Below, piece after piece: positions 1 through 13,591 of a DNA stretch of 19,170 nucleotides. A program made the translations under genes and the position numbers. Position 1 is the stretch's first letter. Each line of letters begins with the position of its first letter. The notes below the pieces were generated by a model. The model was not told where the DNA came from and did no database searches. It was given only the letters and a program-made list of their open reading frames with translations. Source of the DNA: Escherichia coli (lineage in GTDB: Bacteria; Pseudomonadota; Gammaproteobacteria; Enterobacterales; Enterobacteriaceae); assembly GCF_003334255.1 (NCBI RefSeq), contig NZ_QOWU01000071.1. One strand, 5' to 3'.

Positions 1-265
1 TATTTTCCGAATGCATAATGACCTCCTCTGGAATATCCCACCAATGCTATAGTGAGTATATAAAGGTCATACCATCTACGTGTTCTTCGGTAGCGATCAC
101 GGCGGCGAGCGTGGTGCACTGTTGTACGGGCTGATCGGCACCTGCCGGTTGAATGGTATCGATCCGGAAGCGTATCTGCGCCATATCCTGAGCGTACTGC
201 CGGAATGGCCTTCCAACCGAGTTGACGAACTCCTGCCATGGAACGTAGTACTCACTAATAAATAA
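1..265 (+). CDS. IS66-family transposase, C-terminal fragment (5' end outside window)
   Basis: Translation ...GALLYGLIGTCRLNGIDPEAYLRHILSVLPEWPSNRVDELLPWN... matches the conserved C-terminal region of IS66-family transposases; reading frame is open to the window edge. Confidence 0.8.
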
Positions 266-296
266 GCGTCAATACGGTGCTCCATTGACGCTTACA
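1..296 (+). mobile_element. IS66-family insertion sequence, 3' end only (window begins inside the element)
   Basis: Transposase C-terminal ORF ends at 265. 266-296 holds an 8-bp-stem hairpin (GCGTCAAT...ATTGACGC) and ends ...CGCTTAC, i.e. GTAAGCG on the other strand, which I recall as the IS66-type terminus. Exact boundary is inferred. Confidence 0.6.
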
Positions 297-492
297 AATA
301 TCCGGGATATTGCAGGCAAATGTAGTCCATCTGCACCTTTGATGTGCAGTCCATCACCCGTTTAAACGCCTCCATGTAGTCATAACAGCCCTGCAATAAT
401 TGCGCGTCACCATCCTCAGTCAGAGGAAACCGGCTGGCGTAGTCATGAACTATTTTTGCCAGTTGTTGCTGCTCTGTGGTTAAGTCGATCAT
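292..492 (-). CDS. Hypothetical small protein (66 aa), translationally coupled downstream of tnpR
   Basis: ATGA start/stop overlap with tnpR (ATG at 492-490, tnpR stop at 491-489). Its stop codon lies inside the putative IS66 terminus, so the C-terminus may be altered. No family recognised. Confidence 0.45.
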   Translation of the reverse strand: MIDLTTEQQQLAKIVHDYASRFPLTEDGDAQLLQGCYDYMEAFKRVMDCTSKVQMDYICLQYPGYL

Positions 493-1064
493 TTTTGTCC
501 TCGTGAAAGCGTTCTATAAACTGTTGGCCGCGACACTGCGAACAGATCCGCCAGATCGCTGATCGAGTACTGGCCGGTTTCCCGCATGCGGCACAACTCT
601 TTTTGCTGCTTTTCAGACAGCTTAGGTTGTTTTCCCCGCAGTTTTCCCTTTGCCCGCGCAATCGCCATCCCTTCCCGGGTACGCAGACGTATCAGATCGC
701 CCTCAAACTCAGCAAAAGTGGCCAGCACATTGAAAAACATCTTCCCCACAGGGTCTGCTGGGTCGTAGAGACTGGTTCCCAGCGCCAGCTTCACACCCCT
801 GGCCTGTAGTGCATCCGCTATCTCACGTGCGTCAGGAACTGACCGCGCCAGACGGTCAAGCTTGGGAACAACCAGCGTGTCACCGCTGCGCACAGCGGCC
901 AGCGCCTGATCCAGTCCGGGCCGTTGCCGGTTTGAGCCGGTCAGCCCTTTATCAAGGTAAATCCGGTCCGGGGAGACGCCAAGTCTGACCAGCGTTTCCT
1001 GCTGTGCGGTTAAATCCTGTTTATCAGTAGAGCATCGGGCATACCCGATCCGTATTTCAGGCAT
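489..1064 (-). CDS. tnpR: Tn3-family serine recombinase (resolvase)
   Basis: 191 aa; N-terminal catalytic region IRIGYARCSTDKQDL, DRLARS motif, C-terminal helix-turn-helix (SISDLADLFAVSRPTVYR); divergent from tnpA as in Tn3-family transposons. Confidence 0.9.
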   Translation of the reverse strand: MPEIRIGYARCSTDKQDLTAQQETLVRLGVSPDRIYLDKGLTGSNRQRPGLDQALAAVRSGDTLVVPKLDRLARSVPDAREIADALQARGVKLALGTSLYDPADPVGKMFFNVLATFAEFEGDLIRLRTREGMAIARAKGKLRGKQPKLSEKQQKELCRMRETGQYSISDLADLFAVSRPTVYRTLSRGQK

Positions 1065-1212
1065 AAATGTGTACGTTTAAGGGGCCATGAAAGAGATTGA
1101 TACCGTACCAGTTATATGAGACAACGTCAGCAGTGATTTTCTCTGAAGCGCAAATTTAATTTTTACCGTCCGCAGAGCGATCCTCTTACGGACATGATTA
1201 ATCGGGGTCAGG
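1065..1212. promoter_or_regulatory. res-like region with divergent tnpR/tnpA promoters
   Basis: 148-bp intergenic region between divergent tnpR and tnpA containing inverted half-sites (GTCCG...CGGAC); position fits a resolution site. Subsites not mapped. Confidence 0.45.
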
Positions 1213-4200
1213 ATGACAACGCGTGGCAAAGCTACAGGCAAAAGTGAACGGCTGGCGGTTTTAAATAGCGCCGAGCAGGAGGCACTGTATGGTCTTCCTG
1301 ATTTCGATGATGCACAGCGACTGGAATTCCTGGCGCTGGAGGAATCAGAACTGGCGCTGGCCTGTAGTCGTCAGGGTCTTCACGCTCAAATTTATTGCAT
1401 CCTTCAGATCGCTTACTTTAAAGCCAAACACCTGTTTTTCCGCTTCGGATGGGGTGATGTTAAGGACGACAGTAACTTTGTGCTGAGCCGTTATTTTCAG
1501 GGTGAATCACTTCCGGAGCTGACTCTCACCAGGCACGAGCGCTATGCTCAACGCGAAAAAATCTGCTCACTGTACGGTTACCAACCGTGGTCATCTTCTC
1601 TGTCGCCACAGCTTGAACAGCAGGCAGCCAACATTGTTCACCGGGATGTAACCCCCGGCTTTGTTGCCACGGAGCTGATTATCTGGCTCAACGAACATAA
1701 AATTATCCGCCCCGGTTATACCACGCTTCAGGAGCTGGTAAGCCGGGTCCTTTCTGAAGAAAGGCAGCGTCTGGGACGTATACTGACGGAACAGCTTGAT
1801 GATGCAACTATTGCTGACCTGGGCAGACTGACTGAACGTGATGATACCCTTTCCCGGCTCGCAATCCTCAGGCAGGATGCGCGTGACTTTGGCTGGCGCC
1901 AGATGGTTCACGAACGGGAAAAGCGGGCTATCCTGGAGCCGCTGCACCATAAAGCCTGCGATATTTTGCCAGCACTGAATATTTCGCAGCAAAACCTGCT
2001 GTACTACGCCAGTCTGGCAAATTTCTATACCGTTTACGATCTCCGCAACCTGAAACCGGAGCAGACCCGCCTTTACCTGTTGTGTTATGCCTGGGTTCGC
2101 TATCGCCAGTTCAGTGACAACCTGGTGGATGCGATGTTTTTCCATATGAAACAGCTTGAGGATGAGAGCCGCAGCGTGGCCAGCCAACTCATGGCTGATA
2201 TGCAGGAAAAATACCGGCGCGAAACGTCTAAAATCGGGCGTCTGCTGTCGCTTTATGTTGATGACAGCGTTCCTGACCCCACCACCTTTGGTGAAGTCCG
2301 CCGCCGGGCCTGGAAAATAATGCCCAGGGAGACGCTGAAAACTACAGCACAACGTATGAGCGTGAAGCCCGTCAGCAGACTGGCGCTACAGTGGCAGGCC
2401 GTGGATGGCATGACGGCATTAATACGGCGTCACCTGCGACCATTATATCTTTCACTCGATCTCACCAGCGTGGTCCGGGACAGCCCGTGGGCAGAGGCGC
2501 TTAACTGGCTCAGAACGGTGTTCAGCAAAAAACAGACGCTTTTGCAGCGGCCACTTGAGGAGTGCCCGCAGGTAACGTTACCTGCGCGGCTGCGCCCGTA
2601 CCTGCTGGAATTCGGTGAGGATGGTGAGCCCACAGGCCTGAATGCCGGGCGTTATGAGTTCTGGCTCTATCGTCAGATAAGAAAGCGTTTTCAGGCGGGA
2701 GAATTCCACCTCAATAATAGCCTCCGGCACCGCCATCTTTCTGATGAACTGGTACCGGAAGGGGAACAGGCCACAGTGCTGGCTGAAATGAACATCCCGT
2801 TCCTGCAGAAGCCCATTAAAACACAGCTAAAAAAACTGGCATCCGAGCTGCACCGACAGTGGAAAGTGTTTAACCGTGAGCTGAAACAGGGGAAACTGAA
2901 ACATCTGGAATACGATAAAGAAACGCAGAAGCTGACCTGGCATAAATCGGTGGCCAGCCGTTATAAGTCGCAGAATAAGCGTTTTTATGAGCAACTGCCA
3001 TTCTGCGATGTGACCGACGTCTTCCGCTTTGTTAACGGGCAGTGTCGATTTCTTCCCGCCATGAAGCCGCTGCAACCCCGTTACGCCAAAAAAGAAGCTG
3101 ATGTAGACAGTCTGATGGCGGTCATCGTTGCCCAGGCGATGAACCATGGCAACCATGTGATGGCGCGAACCAGCGATATACCATTCCATGTGCTGGAGAC
3201 CACGTACGAACAGTACCTTCGTCTGGCGTCTCTGCTCACGGCCAATGACTGTATAACCGATGCTATAGAAGCGCTACCGGTTTTTCCGCTCTATTCGTTT
3301 GATCCGGAGACGCTTTATGGAGCTGTTGACGGGCAAAAATTTGGTGTTGAACGTCCGACAGTGAAAGCACGGTATTCACGTAAATATTTTGGTCGTGGTA
3401 AAGGCATGGTGGCCTACACGCTGCTGTGCAACCACATTCCAGTCAACGGATACCTGATTGGCACAAACGACTACGAAGGCCATCATGTATTTGACATCTG
3501 GTACCGCAATACCTCAGCAGTGAAACCCACGGCCATTACCGGTGACATGCACAGCATCAACAAAGCCAACTTTGCGATCCTGCACTGGTTTGGCCTTCGC
3601 TTTGAACCCCATTTTACTGGCCTTAACAAACAACTTCAGGAACTGTACTGCACCAGAGACACGTCAGCATATAAAAAATGCCTGATCCAGCCTGCCGGTC
3701 AGATTGACCTGGACCTTATCACCCGCGAAAAAAGTAATCTTAATCGCATCGTCGCTACGCTGGGGCTAAAAGAAATGACGCAGGGAACGCTGATCCGTAA
3801 GTTATGTACATATACTACGGCCAGCCCGACAAGACAGGCGGTATTTGAATACGATCGGCTGGTTCGCAGCATTTACACGCTGAAGTATCTGCGTGACCCG
3901 CAACTGGAACGCAATATCCGTCGTTCCCAGAACCGCATTGAATCTTATCACCAGCTGCGTGCAGCAGTCGCCAAAGTCGGCGGCAAGAAGGAGTTAACAG
4001 GGAAAAATGACATTGAAACGGACATCAGTAATCAGTGCGGACGGTTGATCTCCAACGCGATCGTTTATTACAACTCCGCGATCCTGTCACGGTTACTGGA
4101 ACGGCTGGAAGCCGAAGGTAACGAAAGGGGCATAGAGACTCTGACCCGGATATCGCCGGTGGCCTGGCAGCACATTTTGCTGAACGGGCATTATACATTT

Positions 4201-4260
4201 CAGAACACTAATGAAATTATTGACCTGGATGCTCTGGTTGTCGGACTAAAACTGGGGTAA
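1213..4260 (+). CDS. tnpA: Tn3-family DDE transposase
   Basis: 1015-aa ORF, the typical size for Tn3-family TnpA; stop codon lies inside the terminal inverted repeat as in Tn3. Confidence 0.92.
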   Translation: MTTRGKATGKSERLAVLNSAEQEALYGLPDFDDAQRLEFLALEESELALACSRQGLHAQIYCILQIAYFKAKHLFFRFGWGDVKDDSNFVLSRYFQGESLPELTLTRHERYAQREKICSLYGYQPWSSSLSPQLEQQAANIVHRDVTPGFVATELIIWLNEHKIIRPGYTTLQELVSRVLSEERQRLGRILTEQLDDATIADLGRLTERDDTLSRLAILRQDARDFGWRQMVHEREKRAILEPLHHKACDILPALNISQQNLLYYASLANFYTVYDLRNLKPEQTRLYLLCYAWVRYRQFSDNLVDAMFFHMKQLEDESRSVASQLMADMQEKYRRETSKIGRLLSLYVDDSVPDPTTFGEVRRRAWKIMPRETLKTTAQRMSVKPVSRLALQWQAVDGMTALIRRHLRPLYLSLDLTSVVRDSPWAEALNWLRTVFSKKQTLLQRPLEECPQVTLPARLRPYLLEFGEDGEPTGLNAGRYEFWLYRQIRKRFQAGEFHLNNSLRHRHLSDELVPEGEQATVLAEMNIPFLQKPIKTQLKKLASELHRQWKVFNRELKQGKLKHLEYDKETQKLTWHKSVASRYKSQNKRFYEQLPFCDVTDVFRFVNGQCRFLPAMKPLQPRYAKKEADVDSLMAVIVAQAMNHGNHVMARTSDIPFHVLETTYEQYLRLASLLTANDCITDAIEALPVFPLYSFDPETLYGAVDGQKFGVERPTVKARYSRKYFGRGKGMVAYTLLCNHIPVNGYLIGTNDYEGHHVFDIWYRNTSAVKPTAITGDMHSINKANFAILHWFGLRFEPHFTGLNKQLQELYCTRDTSAYKKCLIQPAGQIDLDLITREKSNLNRIVATLGLKEMTQGTLIRKLCTYTTASPTRQAVFEYDRLVRSIYTLKYLRDPQLERNIRRSQNRIESYHQLRAAVAKVGGKKELTGKNDIETDISNQCGRLISNAIVYYNSAILSRLLERLEAEGNERGIETLTRISPVAWQHILLNGHYTFQNTNEIIDLDALVVGLKLG

Positions 4261-4292
4261 CGGAAATTTCGGCGGTTCCGGCGTAGAACCCC
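4255..4292. repeat. 38-bp terminal inverted repeat of the Tn3-family transposon (tnpA-proximal end)
   Basis: Reverse complement reads GGGGTTCTACGCCGGAACCGCCGAAATTTCCGTTACCC (outer GGGG, inner end overlapping the tnpA stop). No matching second copy found in 1-500. Confidence 0.7.
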
Positions 4293-4909
4293 ATATCGCT
4301 CTTACTAGGGGAGCAGTAAACCAAAAATGAAAAGTATTATTAAAGAGAACGTTGGCAGGAGCAGAGGTAGTGACAGAATCACCAAATCCCTGTCAATATG
4401 TGATTTTTTGTTCTTAACGTGGTATCTGAAATTCACTCGTTTATCCGTTTTCACATAACACCTGCCATTTGCTTTACCTGGCCTCTTAAGTTGTATGAGG
4501 CATAATTTATTCCAGACAATATTTTATGGCCACTTTTAACCTGTGCCATTTATTACCTCGTCATTATATCGTCACCAGGATATGCCGCGTCAGCGGCATG
4601 GAAGGCGGCACGCTGTGGTTACATGTGATACCGGAGTAAAACCGCCGAAGCCCGGCGTCAGCCGGTACGGATTGATAGATTTCACCTTACCCATCCCCAG
4701 CCCTGCCAGACCATATCCGCTTTCAGCCATGACAGAGCTTCTGTGCGCGGTCGGAGTGGTCCCGACGAGGGTTTACCCGAAGTCGGGGCGTATCTCCGCG
4801 TTAGCGGGCCGTCAGGGCCGCTTACGAGCGTGTACTCGATACGTCCAGCCAGAAGACTGGCAGCGATGACAATGTAGTTACAACATTCATAATTAAAAGC
4901 GATGTTGTT

Positions 4910-10181: not shown

Positions 10182-10206
10182 ACAGTGTATTCAGGAGGTA
10201 CAAATC

Positions 10207-10488
10207 ATGCCATCTGCAACACAAACTGCCCGACTGGAAGCAAGAATCAGCACAGAACTGCATGCTATGCTGAAACGCGCTGCAGAAATCCAGGGACGCA
10301 CTATGACCGATTTTATCATTTCTGCCGTTCAGGATGCGGCACAACGCGCTATAGAACAAACCGATATCATCCGACTGTCCCGGACAGATCAGGAAATTTT
10401 TGCTCAGGCATTACTGTCACCAACAGAACCTAATGATGCGCTCAAACGGGCCTTTAAACGCCGTAATAATATTCTATACACAAAATAA
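10207..10488 (+). CDS. DUF1778-type (ribbon-helix-helix) antitoxin of a GNAT toxin
   Basis: 93 aa; AGGAGG RBS; ...LEARISTELHAMLKRAAEIQGRTMTDFIISAV... is typical of TacA/KacA-type antitoxins; immediately upstream of the GNAT gene. Confidence 0.85.
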   Translation: MPSATQTARLEARISTELHAMLKRAAEIQGRTMTDFIISAVQDAAQRAIEQTDIIRLSRTDQEIFAQALLSPTEPNDALKRAFKRRNNILYTK

Positions 10489-10493
10489 ATATA

Positions 10494-10982
10494 ATGTTTC
10501 AGCTGAAACCATTTAACAGCACATATGACAGAACCTCATTTTTATGTGGTTCTGATGCTCTGGACCGTTATATAAAAGAGCATGTCACACAGGATATTCG
10601 ACGACGCATCGCGGCCTGCTTTGTTGCTATAGATAACGATCATCGTATCATCGGATACTATACGTTATCAGCGGCCAGTATATTATTAACTGACTTACCT
10701 GAGCATTTGAGAAAAAAGCTACCACGATATCCTACCATCCCGGCTATTCGTATGGGACGCCTGGCAGTAAGTCTGTCATCAAAAGGAACAGGACTTGGTG
10801 GGACACTTTTAGCTGATGCGCTATATCGTGCATACACATCTGAAATTGCAGCATATGCGCTGATTGTTGATGCAAAAGATGACACGGCAGTCTCATTTTA
10901 CAAACATTATGGATTTATGACGCTCCCGGAGTCAGGGCGAACTTTATTCATGCCACTGGCATCATTATCTGCAATAGAATAA
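10494..10982 (+). CDS. GNAT-family acetyltransferase toxin (TacT/KacT/AtaT-type)
   Basis: 162 aa acetyltransferase fold (…RMGRLAVSLSSKGTGLGGTLLADAL…FYKHYGFM…), 5 bp after the antitoxin stop. Confidence 0.85.
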   Translation: MFQLKPFNSTYDRTSFLCGSDALDRYIKEHVTQDIRRRIAACFVAIDNDHRIIGYYTLSAASILLTDLPEHLRKKLPRYPTIPAIRMGRLAVSLSSKGTGLGGTLLADALYRAYTSEIAAYALIVDAKDDTAVSFYKHYGFMTLPESGRTLFMPLASLSAIE

Positions 10983-11553
10983 CCAGAATAAATCCGGGTA
11001 AAAAAGGGCGCATTGAGGTCAGCCTTCGCAACAATCCGGCGGCAGATTCCCTGCCGCCGTGTTGCCCGTTAACGTTTAACTTCGTAGGCTAACGTTGCCA
11101 CAAGCACCGTATTTCCCTGCTCGATACGAAATCCGCAAAGCGAATCCCTCACCATCCAGACAAAACACAGTATCGTCACACAGAGGACAATTAACATTGT
11201 TAAAAACGTTCGTTGTAGCATCGCAGCCCCTCCATTGCCTTTCGGCCGTTATCGGGCTACTATAATGTTGTCTAGGCATTACAGTAGAGCCCTGGGTTGA
11301 TTGATAAAAAAATCGCCTGGGGCTTCTGCTACATGCCGTCCACAAAACGCTTTCGGCATACAGCCTCAAGCGCCCGCAGCTATTCTAATCGTTTTTCAGT
11401 CTGCCACAATCGTTTTCCATCTAATGACATGTAATGCGCAACGGTATTTTTACGGGAAACAACACGGCAAGGATTCCCGGAACACGTCCATTATTTTATG
11501 GTTACGGACATCATGTTAAATCAGAAAGTAATAATGACCTGAAAGGAAATGGT

Positions 11554-11888: not shown

Positions 11889-13436
11889 TTATTTTTCTGA
11901 TTCAGCATTTCCGGTCAGTACAGGCTCTTCTGGCAAAGACATTACCGGAACGTCACGTTCGCCATTGAATACAGAAACACTTTCGGTGAAACCATTCTGT
12001 AACAAAGAAAAACTTAACGGCAGATTTTTGGTTTGTATCCCTGTGATCCATTGAAAAATCTCGGGAAAACGACGGGCGCTGATATGCACATGATTGAGGC
12101 GGTGCTCAGTAATATCACTTGCCATCATCATGAGAGGCACATCGTATCCCGAACGCAAACCTGGCGCATGATGCACAGGGGTGCTGTCTGAACTGACGGA
12201 TTGCCCATGATCAGAAAAATACAGCATGGCAAAATCATCGCCATGCTCTGTCGTCATGTTATAAATTGCCTGAAGAAACCGATCCAGCTTAAGCAATGTT
12301 GATAAATAACAGGATACTTTATTTCCGAATAATTCCCTGAACGGCTGTGCATCATTAAAAAGTCTGTCACAGGGATTAGGATGGGATCCCAGCATATGAA
12401 TGAAAATCACTTTTGGAGAAGACGAATTAACAGCTTCCCTGACATACTGAAGCATATCTTCATCATCAATGCGACGGGAAGAAGAGTTCCCTTCCTTAAG
12501 AAAATATTTCTTATCCGCACTGGCGGCGATGACAGAAATCAGCGTATCATGTCGCCCTAAAGAGCCCTGATTTGATATCCACCACGTTTCATATCCGGCT
12601 TTTCTGGCAAGCGTAACAATATTATTACCCGGATTACCTGTTTCAGTGTAATCAAGAGTCAGTGTTCTGCTGAGTGAACCTGTCGTATTCGGAGCAGCGG
12701 AGAAATACCCATTAATAAATATACCCGGAGCAGAGTTCAGCCATGGTGTTGTCGGCAAAGGATACCCATAAACAGAAAGATAATCCCGTCTGACACTTTC
12801 ACCAATTACGATAATTATAGTTTTATATTTCTTCTCCACACTCACAATATCCCATGAGTCTTTCTGATTGTTTTTCAGCGATTCATATCGCATCATTTCT
12901 TCTCTGGTTTCAGCTATCCCCGTTATTACATTCGTAACCATACGTTTTGGCCATGCATTTACTGACAATACGATAAAGAACAACAGAAAGATAAATCCCC
13001 GGTGGCTTTTTTCACGCTTACGCCAGAACCAGAATGTAAAAGCAGCAATGACCAGTGAAACAATAAAATAAAAAACAGGTATGCCTGTGATAAATTCACC
13101 TGCCTCATTTATATTTGTCTGCATTACAGACGCAATAAAACTGTTGTTTATTTTTCCGTAAATCATTCCAACCGGAGCATAGAATGCACTTAACAAAAGA
13201 AAGATACAGACACACGTCGCTGAAATAACATTCCGCCGCCCCAACGACATCATCAGGAACAATATAAGTACATTCCCTGTGGCGTTTTTCACTGTATATC
13301 CGCAGCACCATGTAACAAGTACAGAAAACAACAGATAAATCAGTGACTCTTTACACCACAACATAAAATAAAACTGTTTTGCCATCTCAAAAGCACATTT
13401 GGATTTTTCTTTAATACGAGACACGCCAGTCATTTT
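11889..13436 (-). CDS. Phosphoethanolamine-transferase-like membrane enzyme (sulfatase/alkaline-phosphatase superfamily, EptA/MCR/OpgE-like); start uncertain
   Basis: N-terminal hydrophobic helices followed by a catalytic domain with IIIVIGESVRRDYLSVYGYP, KVIFIHMLGSHPNP and AMLYFSDHGQS, resembling the VVGETARADHVSFNGY / MLHQMGNHGP / MLYVSDHGES blocks of MCR/EptA. AT-rich. ORF open to 13445 (TTG); first ATG at 13436. Confidence 0.75.
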   Translation of the reverse strand, partial: KMTGVSRIKEKSKCAFEMAKQFYFMLWCKESLIYLLFSVLVTWCCGYTVKNATGNVLILFLMMSLGRRNVISATCVCIFLLLSAFYAPVGMIYGKINNSFIASVMQTNINEAGEFITGIPVFYFIVSLVIAAFTFWFWRKREKSHRGFIFLLFFIVLSVNAWPKRMVTNVITGIAETREEMMRYESLKNNQKDSWDIVSVEKKYKTIIIVIGESVRRDYLSVYGYPLPTTPWLNSAPGIFINGYFSAAPNTTGSLSRTLTLDYTETGNPGNNIVTLARKAGYETWWISNQGSLGRHDTLISVIAASADKKYFLKEGNSSSRRIDDEDMLQYVREAVNSSSPKVIFIHMLGSHPNPCDRLFNDAQPFRELFGNKVSCYLSTLLKLDRFLQAIYNMTTEHGDDFAMLYFSDHGQSVSSDSTPVHHAPGLRSGYDVPLMMMASDITEHRLNHVHISARRFPEIFQWITGIQTKNLPLSFSLLQNGFTESVSVFNGERDVPVMSLPEEPVLTGNAESEK

Positions 13437-13591
13437 CCTGTACAAAAACAGACAATCATTTCAACGCATGGATATTTATATGAAACAGCTCACAAAAATA
13501 CCCTGCTCTGTCTAGCAAGATTACATATTATCAGGTTTTGTGTTTACAGCAACTGCTCCCCGGACCAGATTATTCGCATAACCCGATGAAT

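Follow-up and report, generated by a model that had tools for sequence, protein, structure and literature searches.

Small genes lodged beside the resolution site (res) of Tn3-family transposons are the closest described counterparts of the gene considered here. In Tn3, Tn1, and Tn2, bla follows the resolvase gene in the order tnpA< res tnpR> gene> IR (arrowheads give the direction of transcription; IR, terminal inverted repeat). Passenger and toxin-antitoxin genes beside res are thought to be transcribed from a promoter in the res region, and the Phd-ParE modules recorded in a 2020 survey of toxin-antitoxin genes in Tn3 transposons, those of TnSpu1 and TnAbapMCR4.3, have two genes only (Lima-Mendez et al., PMC7157771). 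Tn4651 and Tn4652 encode TnpC, a 120-amino-acid (aa) post-transcriptional regulator of the transposase, and the extra open reading frames (ORFs) described in the Tn4662a capture paper are given only as "proteins of unknown function" (PMC4133298). Against this background, we analyzed a 19,170-nucleotide (nt) stretch of Escherichia coli DNA (contig NZ_QOWU01000071.1; hereafter the window), in which a 66-codon ORF follows tnpR and ends within the terminus of an IS66-family insertion sequence (IS). This ORF is very likely the 5' fragment of a 90-codon gene, here named X, which is the last gene of a Tn3-family transposon of ~4.1 kb and has been cut by an ISEc43-like IS.

The truncated gene occupies positions 292 to 492 on the minus strand, where the program-made ORF list gives a product of 66 aa. 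It consists of native codons 1 to 65, a Leu codon at position 66 where the native protein has Phe, and an IS-derived stop. The original prediction, made from the letters of the window alone, had the TAA stop formed by the first bases of the IS terminus, and this holds exactly: the stop (292 to 294, minus strand) is made of bases 2 to 4 of the terminus, the last base of which is position 295. The last sense codon is TTG (297 to 295), with its G being IS base 1, and native copies of X read TTT CGC where the window has this altered codon and the TAA.

Comparison with intact copies gave both the native length of the ORF and the original left end of the transposon. Window positions 1 to 1,300 match two E. 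coli plasmids (IncK2/Z; 99,817 bp) at 100% identity, namely, G8 (NZ_CP060058.1; our locus L001) and G6/7. In all 28 other listed matches, which come from Escherichia, Enterobacter, Salmonella, Xenorhabdus, Yokenella, Photobacterium, and Shewanella plasmids, DNA similarity begins at window positions 296 to 298, i.e., at the end of the IS. The gene annotated at the position of X in the CS6 plasmid of enterotoxigenic E. coli (ETEC; L002) and in the Enterobacter plasmid p3442-IncR (L003) is 273 nt long and codes for 90 aa, and its product runs on as ...QYPGYF RFAKWMERLAQGIADGVIEVPKEH beyond the end of the window ORF. Plasmid G8 carries the missing 25 codons of X beyond the IS and outside the window, in a segment (L001 2180-2308) that also holds the left IR (IRL; L001 2180-2217). 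When the IS and one copy of its target-site duplication (TSD) were deleted in silico, the 90-codon frame was regained, placing the insertion point at codon 66; the reconstructed protein is 97% identical to the family member P0001, and its residues 1 to 65 align without gaps. These residues, as they stand in the window, are 84 to 97% identical to enterobacterial members of the family, with the same start, Shine-Dalgarno sequence (SD), and position behind tnpR, and they carry the N-terminal family motifs LT.EQ, RFP, LLQ.CYDYM.AFK, and QMDYIC.QY.G. The C-terminal motif RFAK.ME.LAQGIADG.I.VP and the length of ~90 aa are missing from the window ORF, and the motif is encoded at L001 2228-2308, past the IS. 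Thus, the earlier suggestion that the insertion had truncated the native C terminus is borne out; no intact copy of the transposon lacked the ORF, and none showed the same stop without the IS.

The disrupting element displays the hallmarks of the IS66 family. In plasmid G8 it spans L001 2309-6295 (3,987 bp), opening with GTAAGCG (at L001 2309) and closing with the complement of these bases (at window position 295), so that on the window side the last plus-strand bases of the IS, up to position 295, are ...GACGCTTAC, which reads GTAAGCG when reverse complemented. The IS is flanked by a perfect 8-bp TSD, AAATATCC, the right copy of which lies at 296 to 303 and the left copy at L001 2301-2308, outside the window. 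The right terminal sequence, GTAAGCGTCAATGGAGCACCGTATTGACGCTTAT, occupies 262 to 295 on the minus strand, with 295 as its outermost base. It is preceded by the 3' fragment of the ISEc43-like transposase gene tnpC (65 to 265, plus strand; ORF at 80 to 265), a pseudogene annotated as "transposase domain-containing protein, incomplete," and the IS end is 98.6% identical to copies of ISEc43. For positions on the plasmid we mapped the RefSeq annotation onto the window (window position = 6294 - record position). By this annotation, positions 1 to 64 belong to the end of an IS110-like ISEc45 lying inside tnpC (inner boundary approximate), with the ISEc45 transposase start codon at 16 to 14 on the minus strand. 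This nested insertion accounts both for the loss of the N terminus of tnpC and for the length of 3,987 bp. The annotation of G8 includes tnpA, tnpB, and the split tnpC, of which the window holds only the last ~200 nt, and the IS that disrupts X, being itself disrupted by ISEc45, is probably immobile on its own.

Two further features of this IS were observed. The terminus at 262 to 295 (minus strand) contains a hairpin with a 13-bp stem followed by a T-rich run, an arrangement that is terminator-like and faces read-through transcription from tnpR and X. An independent copy of ISEc43 in the tail-fiber region of a prophage of E. coli Res13 (L080 720-735 and 3260-3275) is flanked by the duplication AAATATCA, a near-match to AAATATCC, and many other E. 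coli matches to the IS end reach 5 to 8 nt into the flank. The near-equal duplications and flank-extending matches suggest a target preference of ISEc43 for AAATATC.

The length of a 66-codon ORF taken alone is no more than expected by chance; it is homology, together with the ratio of nonsynonymous to synonymous substitution rates (dN/dS), that identifies the window ORF as a genuine gene fragment. A search of 5.8 billion proteins recovered 174 clusters of X, nearly all of 90 to 92 aa, from Enterobacterales, Pseudomonas, Vibrio, Shewanella, Xenorhabdus/Photorhabdus, and marine gammaproteobacteria. For 580 orthologous pairs of X coding sequences the median dN/dS is 0.097, and the window copy compared with those of L002, L003, L019, and L021 gives values of 0.03 to 0.06 at dS of 0.5 to 1.4. 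Judged from these coding sequences, X is a real gene under strong purifying selection. In the alignment the only invariant columns, F68 and A76, fall within the 25 residues lost in the window, as do the near-invariant R67, M72, E73, G78, I79, A80, G82, V86, and P87. AlphaFold2 models the 10.5-kDa acidic protein (isoelectric point, 4.8) as a five-helix bundle (predicted local distance difference test score, 91.8; predicted template-modeling score [pTM], 0.81), with helix 5 formed by residues 63 to 80. The truncation takes away this helix and the C-terminal tail, where the family is most highly conserved, which makes the window copy a pseudogene and very probably non-functional.

The RefSeq annotation already has both halves of X as "arylsulfatase regulator, incomplete," one lacking the C terminus and the other the N terminus, so that the disruption is on record there as a split pseudogene. 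The name is that of the whole family at NCBI and UniProt (e.g., WP_000566440.1), for which there is no Pfam or NCBIfam model. True arylsulfatase regulators and maturases of the AtsB/AslB type are radical-SAM/SPASM proteins of about 400 aa found in the neighborhood of sulfatase genes. We rejected a role of X as a sulfatase regulator: it has no sulfatase-related domain in Pfam, and there was no sulfatase gene in any neighborhood viewed. Full-length X had no match in Pfam at any threshold or in NCBIfam, PADLOC, and PHROGs; a sequence-profile search of the Protein Data Bank gave chance matches only (E ~1); and Foldseek recovered only members of the same-named family from AFDB50 and nothing from viral structures. 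The protein is also devoid of DNA-binding or enzymatic signatures.

The host transposon comprises, apart from the IS, IRL, X, tnpR, res, tnpA, and the right IR (IRR), with X as its sole extra gene. By the ORF list and annotation, tnpR (489 to 1064, minus strand) codes for a serine resolvase of 191 aa and tnpA (1213 to 4260, plus strand) for a Tn3-family transposase of 1,015 aa. The region between these divergent genes (1065 to 1212) presumably contains the res site and the promoter region, as suggested by its position and by what is generally known of the family (PMC7157771). The 38-bp IRR lies at 4255 to 4292, with its outer end CCCC at 4289 to 4292 and the tnpA stop within it. Thus, the element has the expected DDE transposase of ~1,000 aa, a divergent serine resolvase with a presumed res region between them, and 38-bp IRs starting with GGGG. 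Its transposase shares 72% identity with that of a Tn4662a-like element, which groups the transposon with the Tn4662a-like members of the family. A promoter consensus scan of window positions 1 to 1,300 returned no sites, a result that says nothing on res promoters.

The junction between tnpR and X is as the original prediction described it, an exact ATGA overlap (489 to 492, minus strand) in which the ATG of X (492 to 490) shares bases with the TGA stop of tnpR (491 to 489; plus strand, c490 a491 t492). An SD, GAGGA (498 to 502, minus strand), lies 5 nt before the ATG and within the 3' coding sequence of tnpR. The same ATGA junction recurs in the copies from Photorhabdus khanii, Shewanella profunda, and Vibrio gelatinilyticus (L019, L021, and L046). 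The absence of any intergenic distance, the overlap, the position of the SD, and the recurrence of the junction are together consistent with the co-expression with the resolvase for which the prediction had argued, and the position downstream of tnpR is indeed the one that the passenger gene bla has in Tn3. Promoter, SD, and start codon of X are all intact in the window.

A scan of one genome per species, with neighbors classed by tblastn searches with reference proteins, retrieved 62 X loci. At the species level, 34 of the 47 loci with full-length X adjoin at least one of tnpR, a Tn3 IR, tnpA, or Phd/ParE; 4 of the remaining 13 are on contigs too short to judge. We observed three gene orders. 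(i) In the first, which is that of the window, the layout is tnpA< res tnpR> X> IR, with ~10 nt between the stop of X and the IR; X is retained by each of the 28 close relatives listed for the window tnpR. Cargo, when present, always lies between tnpR and X, and X keeps its own SD in all such copies. Examples of such cargo include a pair of genes of unknown function coding for 100 aa (phrog_26749) and 120 aa (L003 4226-4896), and a set in which a type VI secretion Hcp/TssD gene is accompanied by two ORFs, one of 230 aa and one of 62 to 66 aa with hydrophobic stretches (L010 5540-6944 and L023 2552-3961), possibly a mobile effector/immunity set. Some E. coli contigs join the 120-aa cargo gene in frame to the C-terminal two-thirds of X, so that the product has 155 aa (P0088). 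(ii) In the second, found in marine gammaproteobacteria, Vibrio, Xenorhabdus, and Photorhabdus, the layout is <tnpR res Phd> X> ParE> tnpA>, with spacers of 15 to 45 nt and an antitoxin gene of the Phd/YefM type (e.g., L004 5714-6602, L008 5710-6605, and L038 to L053); at least 13 loci at the species level and 3 plasmids have this order. (iii) In the third, on plasmids of the Pseudomonas syringae group, X lies behind a resolvase only 26% identical to that of the window, in some cases with a degenerate IR after X. An SD precedes X in every context compared.

The domain extends beyond these single-domain proteins. A profile search of 1.8 billion representatives recovered 527 clusters, including tandem repeats and fusions to unannotated helical regions, across which the extreme C-terminal motif GI.DG.I.VP is kept; 25 longer proteins with the domain were scanned for partner domains and showed no significant Pfam family, and their contigs were uninformative. 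One relative with two repeats lies directly downstream of a Tn3-family tnpA (L072). A paralogous protein of 178 to 180 aa, the N-terminal half of which matches the X profile (hhalign probability, 93%), is encoded behind a RelE/HTH (RelE/HigA-type) toxin-antitoxin pair in a Tn4662a-like element (L077 5986-6522) and behind a truncated recombinase on IncP-1 plasmids (L076 5992-6534). Of the 254 plasmid records that contain this protein, many are clinical, and it is labeled "transposase," "transcriptional regulator," or hypothetical.

We read the locus as follows. An ISEc43-like element with its nested ISEc45 entered X at codon 66, duplicating AAATATCC, and the terminal GTAAGCG of the IS replaced the TTT of this codon with TTG and added the TAA. 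In intact elements, X would be co-transcribed with tnpR from the res-region promoter and translated from its own SD in the 3' end of tnpR, and the ATGA overlap may couple its translation to that of tnpR. Such coupling would not be obligatory, because X has its own SD in every context. The acidic, helical nature of the protein and its conserved, exposed C-terminal tail in the model indicate that it probably acts by binding another protein. By analogy with the toxin-antitoxin pairs adjacent to res, we tentatively suggest that X is an optional protein-binding accessory factor for the transposon's own module, serving in its control or maintenance. With similar reserve, X and the 527-cluster family might be seen as an unrecognized functional component of Tn3-family transposition modules, an acidic helical adaptor. 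Its targets could be the resolvase, the transposase, a toxin-antitoxin pair embedded in the element, or some universal host partner on which replicative transposition or maintenance of the element depends. An adaptor of this kind would explain why X is kept in an IR-proximal position behind tnpR, is nested in Phd-ParE operons, and follows tnpA in distant relatives.

Several observations weigh against one or another part of this account. The overlap of tnpR and X in the ETEC copy (L002) is 8 nt and not ATGA, and in the cargo-bearing copies X is separated from tnpR; both limit the case for coupling. On the chromosome of Photorhabdus thracensis (L058 6986-7087), X has a premature stop, leaving 33 codons, next to intact Phd and ParE genes, and TnSpu1 has, with tnpA and without X, a homologous Phd-ParE pair of two overlapping genes (~70% nucleotide identity). 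Hence, X is dispensable and is not required by the Phd-ParE pair. Distant members of the family, e.g., those of cyanobacteria, are in no recognizable transposon, so the role of X need not be transposon specific. As to the window element itself, its two IRs, compared over window positions 4255 to 4297 and L001 2175-2217, are non-identical, one of each of the two variants found in the lineage, as in Photorhabdus bodei (L014); the ETEC and Shewanella copies have both IRs of the same variant. The window element is flanked by TATGC and ATATC and thus shows no 5-bp target duplication; the ETEC copy lies between two copies of GATCA. The hybrid IRs and the lack of a 5-bp duplication imply that two related transposons once recombined or that a rearrangement took place later, and the window copy is, accordingly, a member of the Tn3 family but no simple recent insertion.

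Among the alternatives to an accessory factor of the transposon's own module, the one that fares best, although we regard it as unlikely, is that intact X is an ordinary host-directed passenger (e.g., one with an anti-defense or host-factor-binding role), its site reflecting only where cargo is tolerated and expressed. The breadth of the 527-cluster family, with its fusions, tandem repeats, and non-transposon contexts, is in keeping with this, and the family-wide retention of GI.DG.I.VP suggests a common universal partner; the acidity of the protein also fits. However, X gave no match to any PADLOC model or phage family and no structural match to known anti-defense proteins, and other cargo enters between tnpR and X, never replacing X, which would be unusual for a simple passenger.

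The second gene order raises the question of whether X is instead a third component of the ParE/Phd module, acting for example as an auxiliary antitoxin or as a modulator, in which case the copy behind tnpR would be an orphan "anti-addiction" gene. The position of X between Phd and ParE in that order, the presence of the distant 178-aa paralog directly behind a RelE/HigA-type pair in a Tn4662a-like element, and the small, acidic, helical nature of X, shared with many antitoxins, all point in this direction. Yet homologous Phd-ParE pairs work without X, as TnSpu1 and the broken P. thracensis copy illustrate, most copies of X have no toxin nearby, and no toxin gene adjoins X in the window. Neither Pfam nor PADLOC gave a match to a toxin or antitoxin domain in X. 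When X was modeled by AlphaFold2 as an X-linker-ParE fusion, the pTM was 0.53, with confidence for X below that of the monomer, so that no complex was predicted, although this is a weak test with 10 paired sequences, no control, and no predicted aligned error. We rate the three-component module as rather improbable.

We hold it to be comparably doubtful that intact X regulates transposition or resolution in the manner of the TnpC of Tn4651/Tn4652, by contacting TnpA or TnpR. This would fit the constant occurrence of X in operons next to res, even where the resolvases and transposases differ widely (26 and 28% identity, respectively), and the tandem-domain relative directly behind a Tn3-family tnpA (L072) is in the position that tnpC has in Tn4651; the ATGA overlap with tnpR is also compatible with it. 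Nevertheless, X is optional within its clade and has relatives outside transposons, and partners as divergent as these would make a specific contact hard to keep while X itself remains 57 to 97% identical. Homology to TnpC was rejected, hhalign giving a probability of 0.2% and NCBIfam no match.

Returning to the truncated copy, one may ask whether its 66-aa product retains its activity, or has acquired another, for which the allele is kept. The insertion has left promoter, SD, and start codon as they were, and a cluster of 66-aa proteins (P0073; 5 members) ending in ...QYPGYL is present in metagenome assemblies. Helix 5 and the conserved tail are gone, though, and among 5,426 complete E. coli genomes only 2 have the IS/X junction, both on the same plasmid, with no sign of selection on the truncated form; we consider retained activity very improbable. 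That the 66-aa ORF might be a native full-length gene, with the IS having landed just downstream and the stop in its end being a coincidence, can be dismissed for practical purposes, as only the openness of the frame speaks for it, whereas orthologs have 90 aa, the in-frame sequence continues past the junction, the missing 25 codons lie beyond the IS with its 8-bp TSD, and RefSeq marks the C terminus as missing.

Elsewhere in the window, a phosphoethanolamine transferase gene with an ORF of 518 codons (11889 to 13445, minus strand) adjoins a DUF2569 gene, and the plasmid backbone at ~10200 to 11500 includes a Hok/Gef gene and a toxin-antitoxin pair of the GNAT/DUF1778 type.

In itself, the finding in the window is a minor one, one more ordinary IS insertion that has killed an accessory gene. 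The X family is of modest value to research on mobile elements: it is strongly constrained, bears a misleading name, has no Pfam family, and is linked to Tn3 elements in three gene orders. The family is the only part with some novelty, a modest lead whose link to Tn3-family modules we did not find described in the literature searched, where the family name combined with transposon terms returned nothing relevant.

Set beside the known systems, the disrupting IS shares with ISEc43 of the IS66 family the GTAAGCG termini, the 8-bp duplication, and the order tnpA-tnpB-tnpC, and it differs in having tnpC broken by ISEc45. The window copy of X differs from the "arylsulfatase regulator" family to which it belongs in lacking residues 66 to 90 and in ending with an IS-derived Leu and stop. 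TnpC of Tn4651/Tn4652 is, like X, a small non-enzymatic accessory protein of Tn3-family elements, but the two have no detectable homology and X occupies a different position in the window. With the toxin-antitoxin pairs embedded in Tn3 transposons, X has in common that it is an optional small gene beside res, tnpR, or tnpA and not part of the distal cargo, whereas no toxin or antitoxin domain was recognized in it by Pfam or PADLOC; the three-gene Phd-X-ParE layout is not described in the 2020 survey (PMC7157771). The bla genes of Tn3, Tn1, and Tn2 are the nearest parallel in layout, and X is likewise probably expressed by read-through from tnpR. Unlike bla, however, X is no resistance gene, overlaps tnpR, ends ~10 nt from the IR, and is retained when cargo is added.
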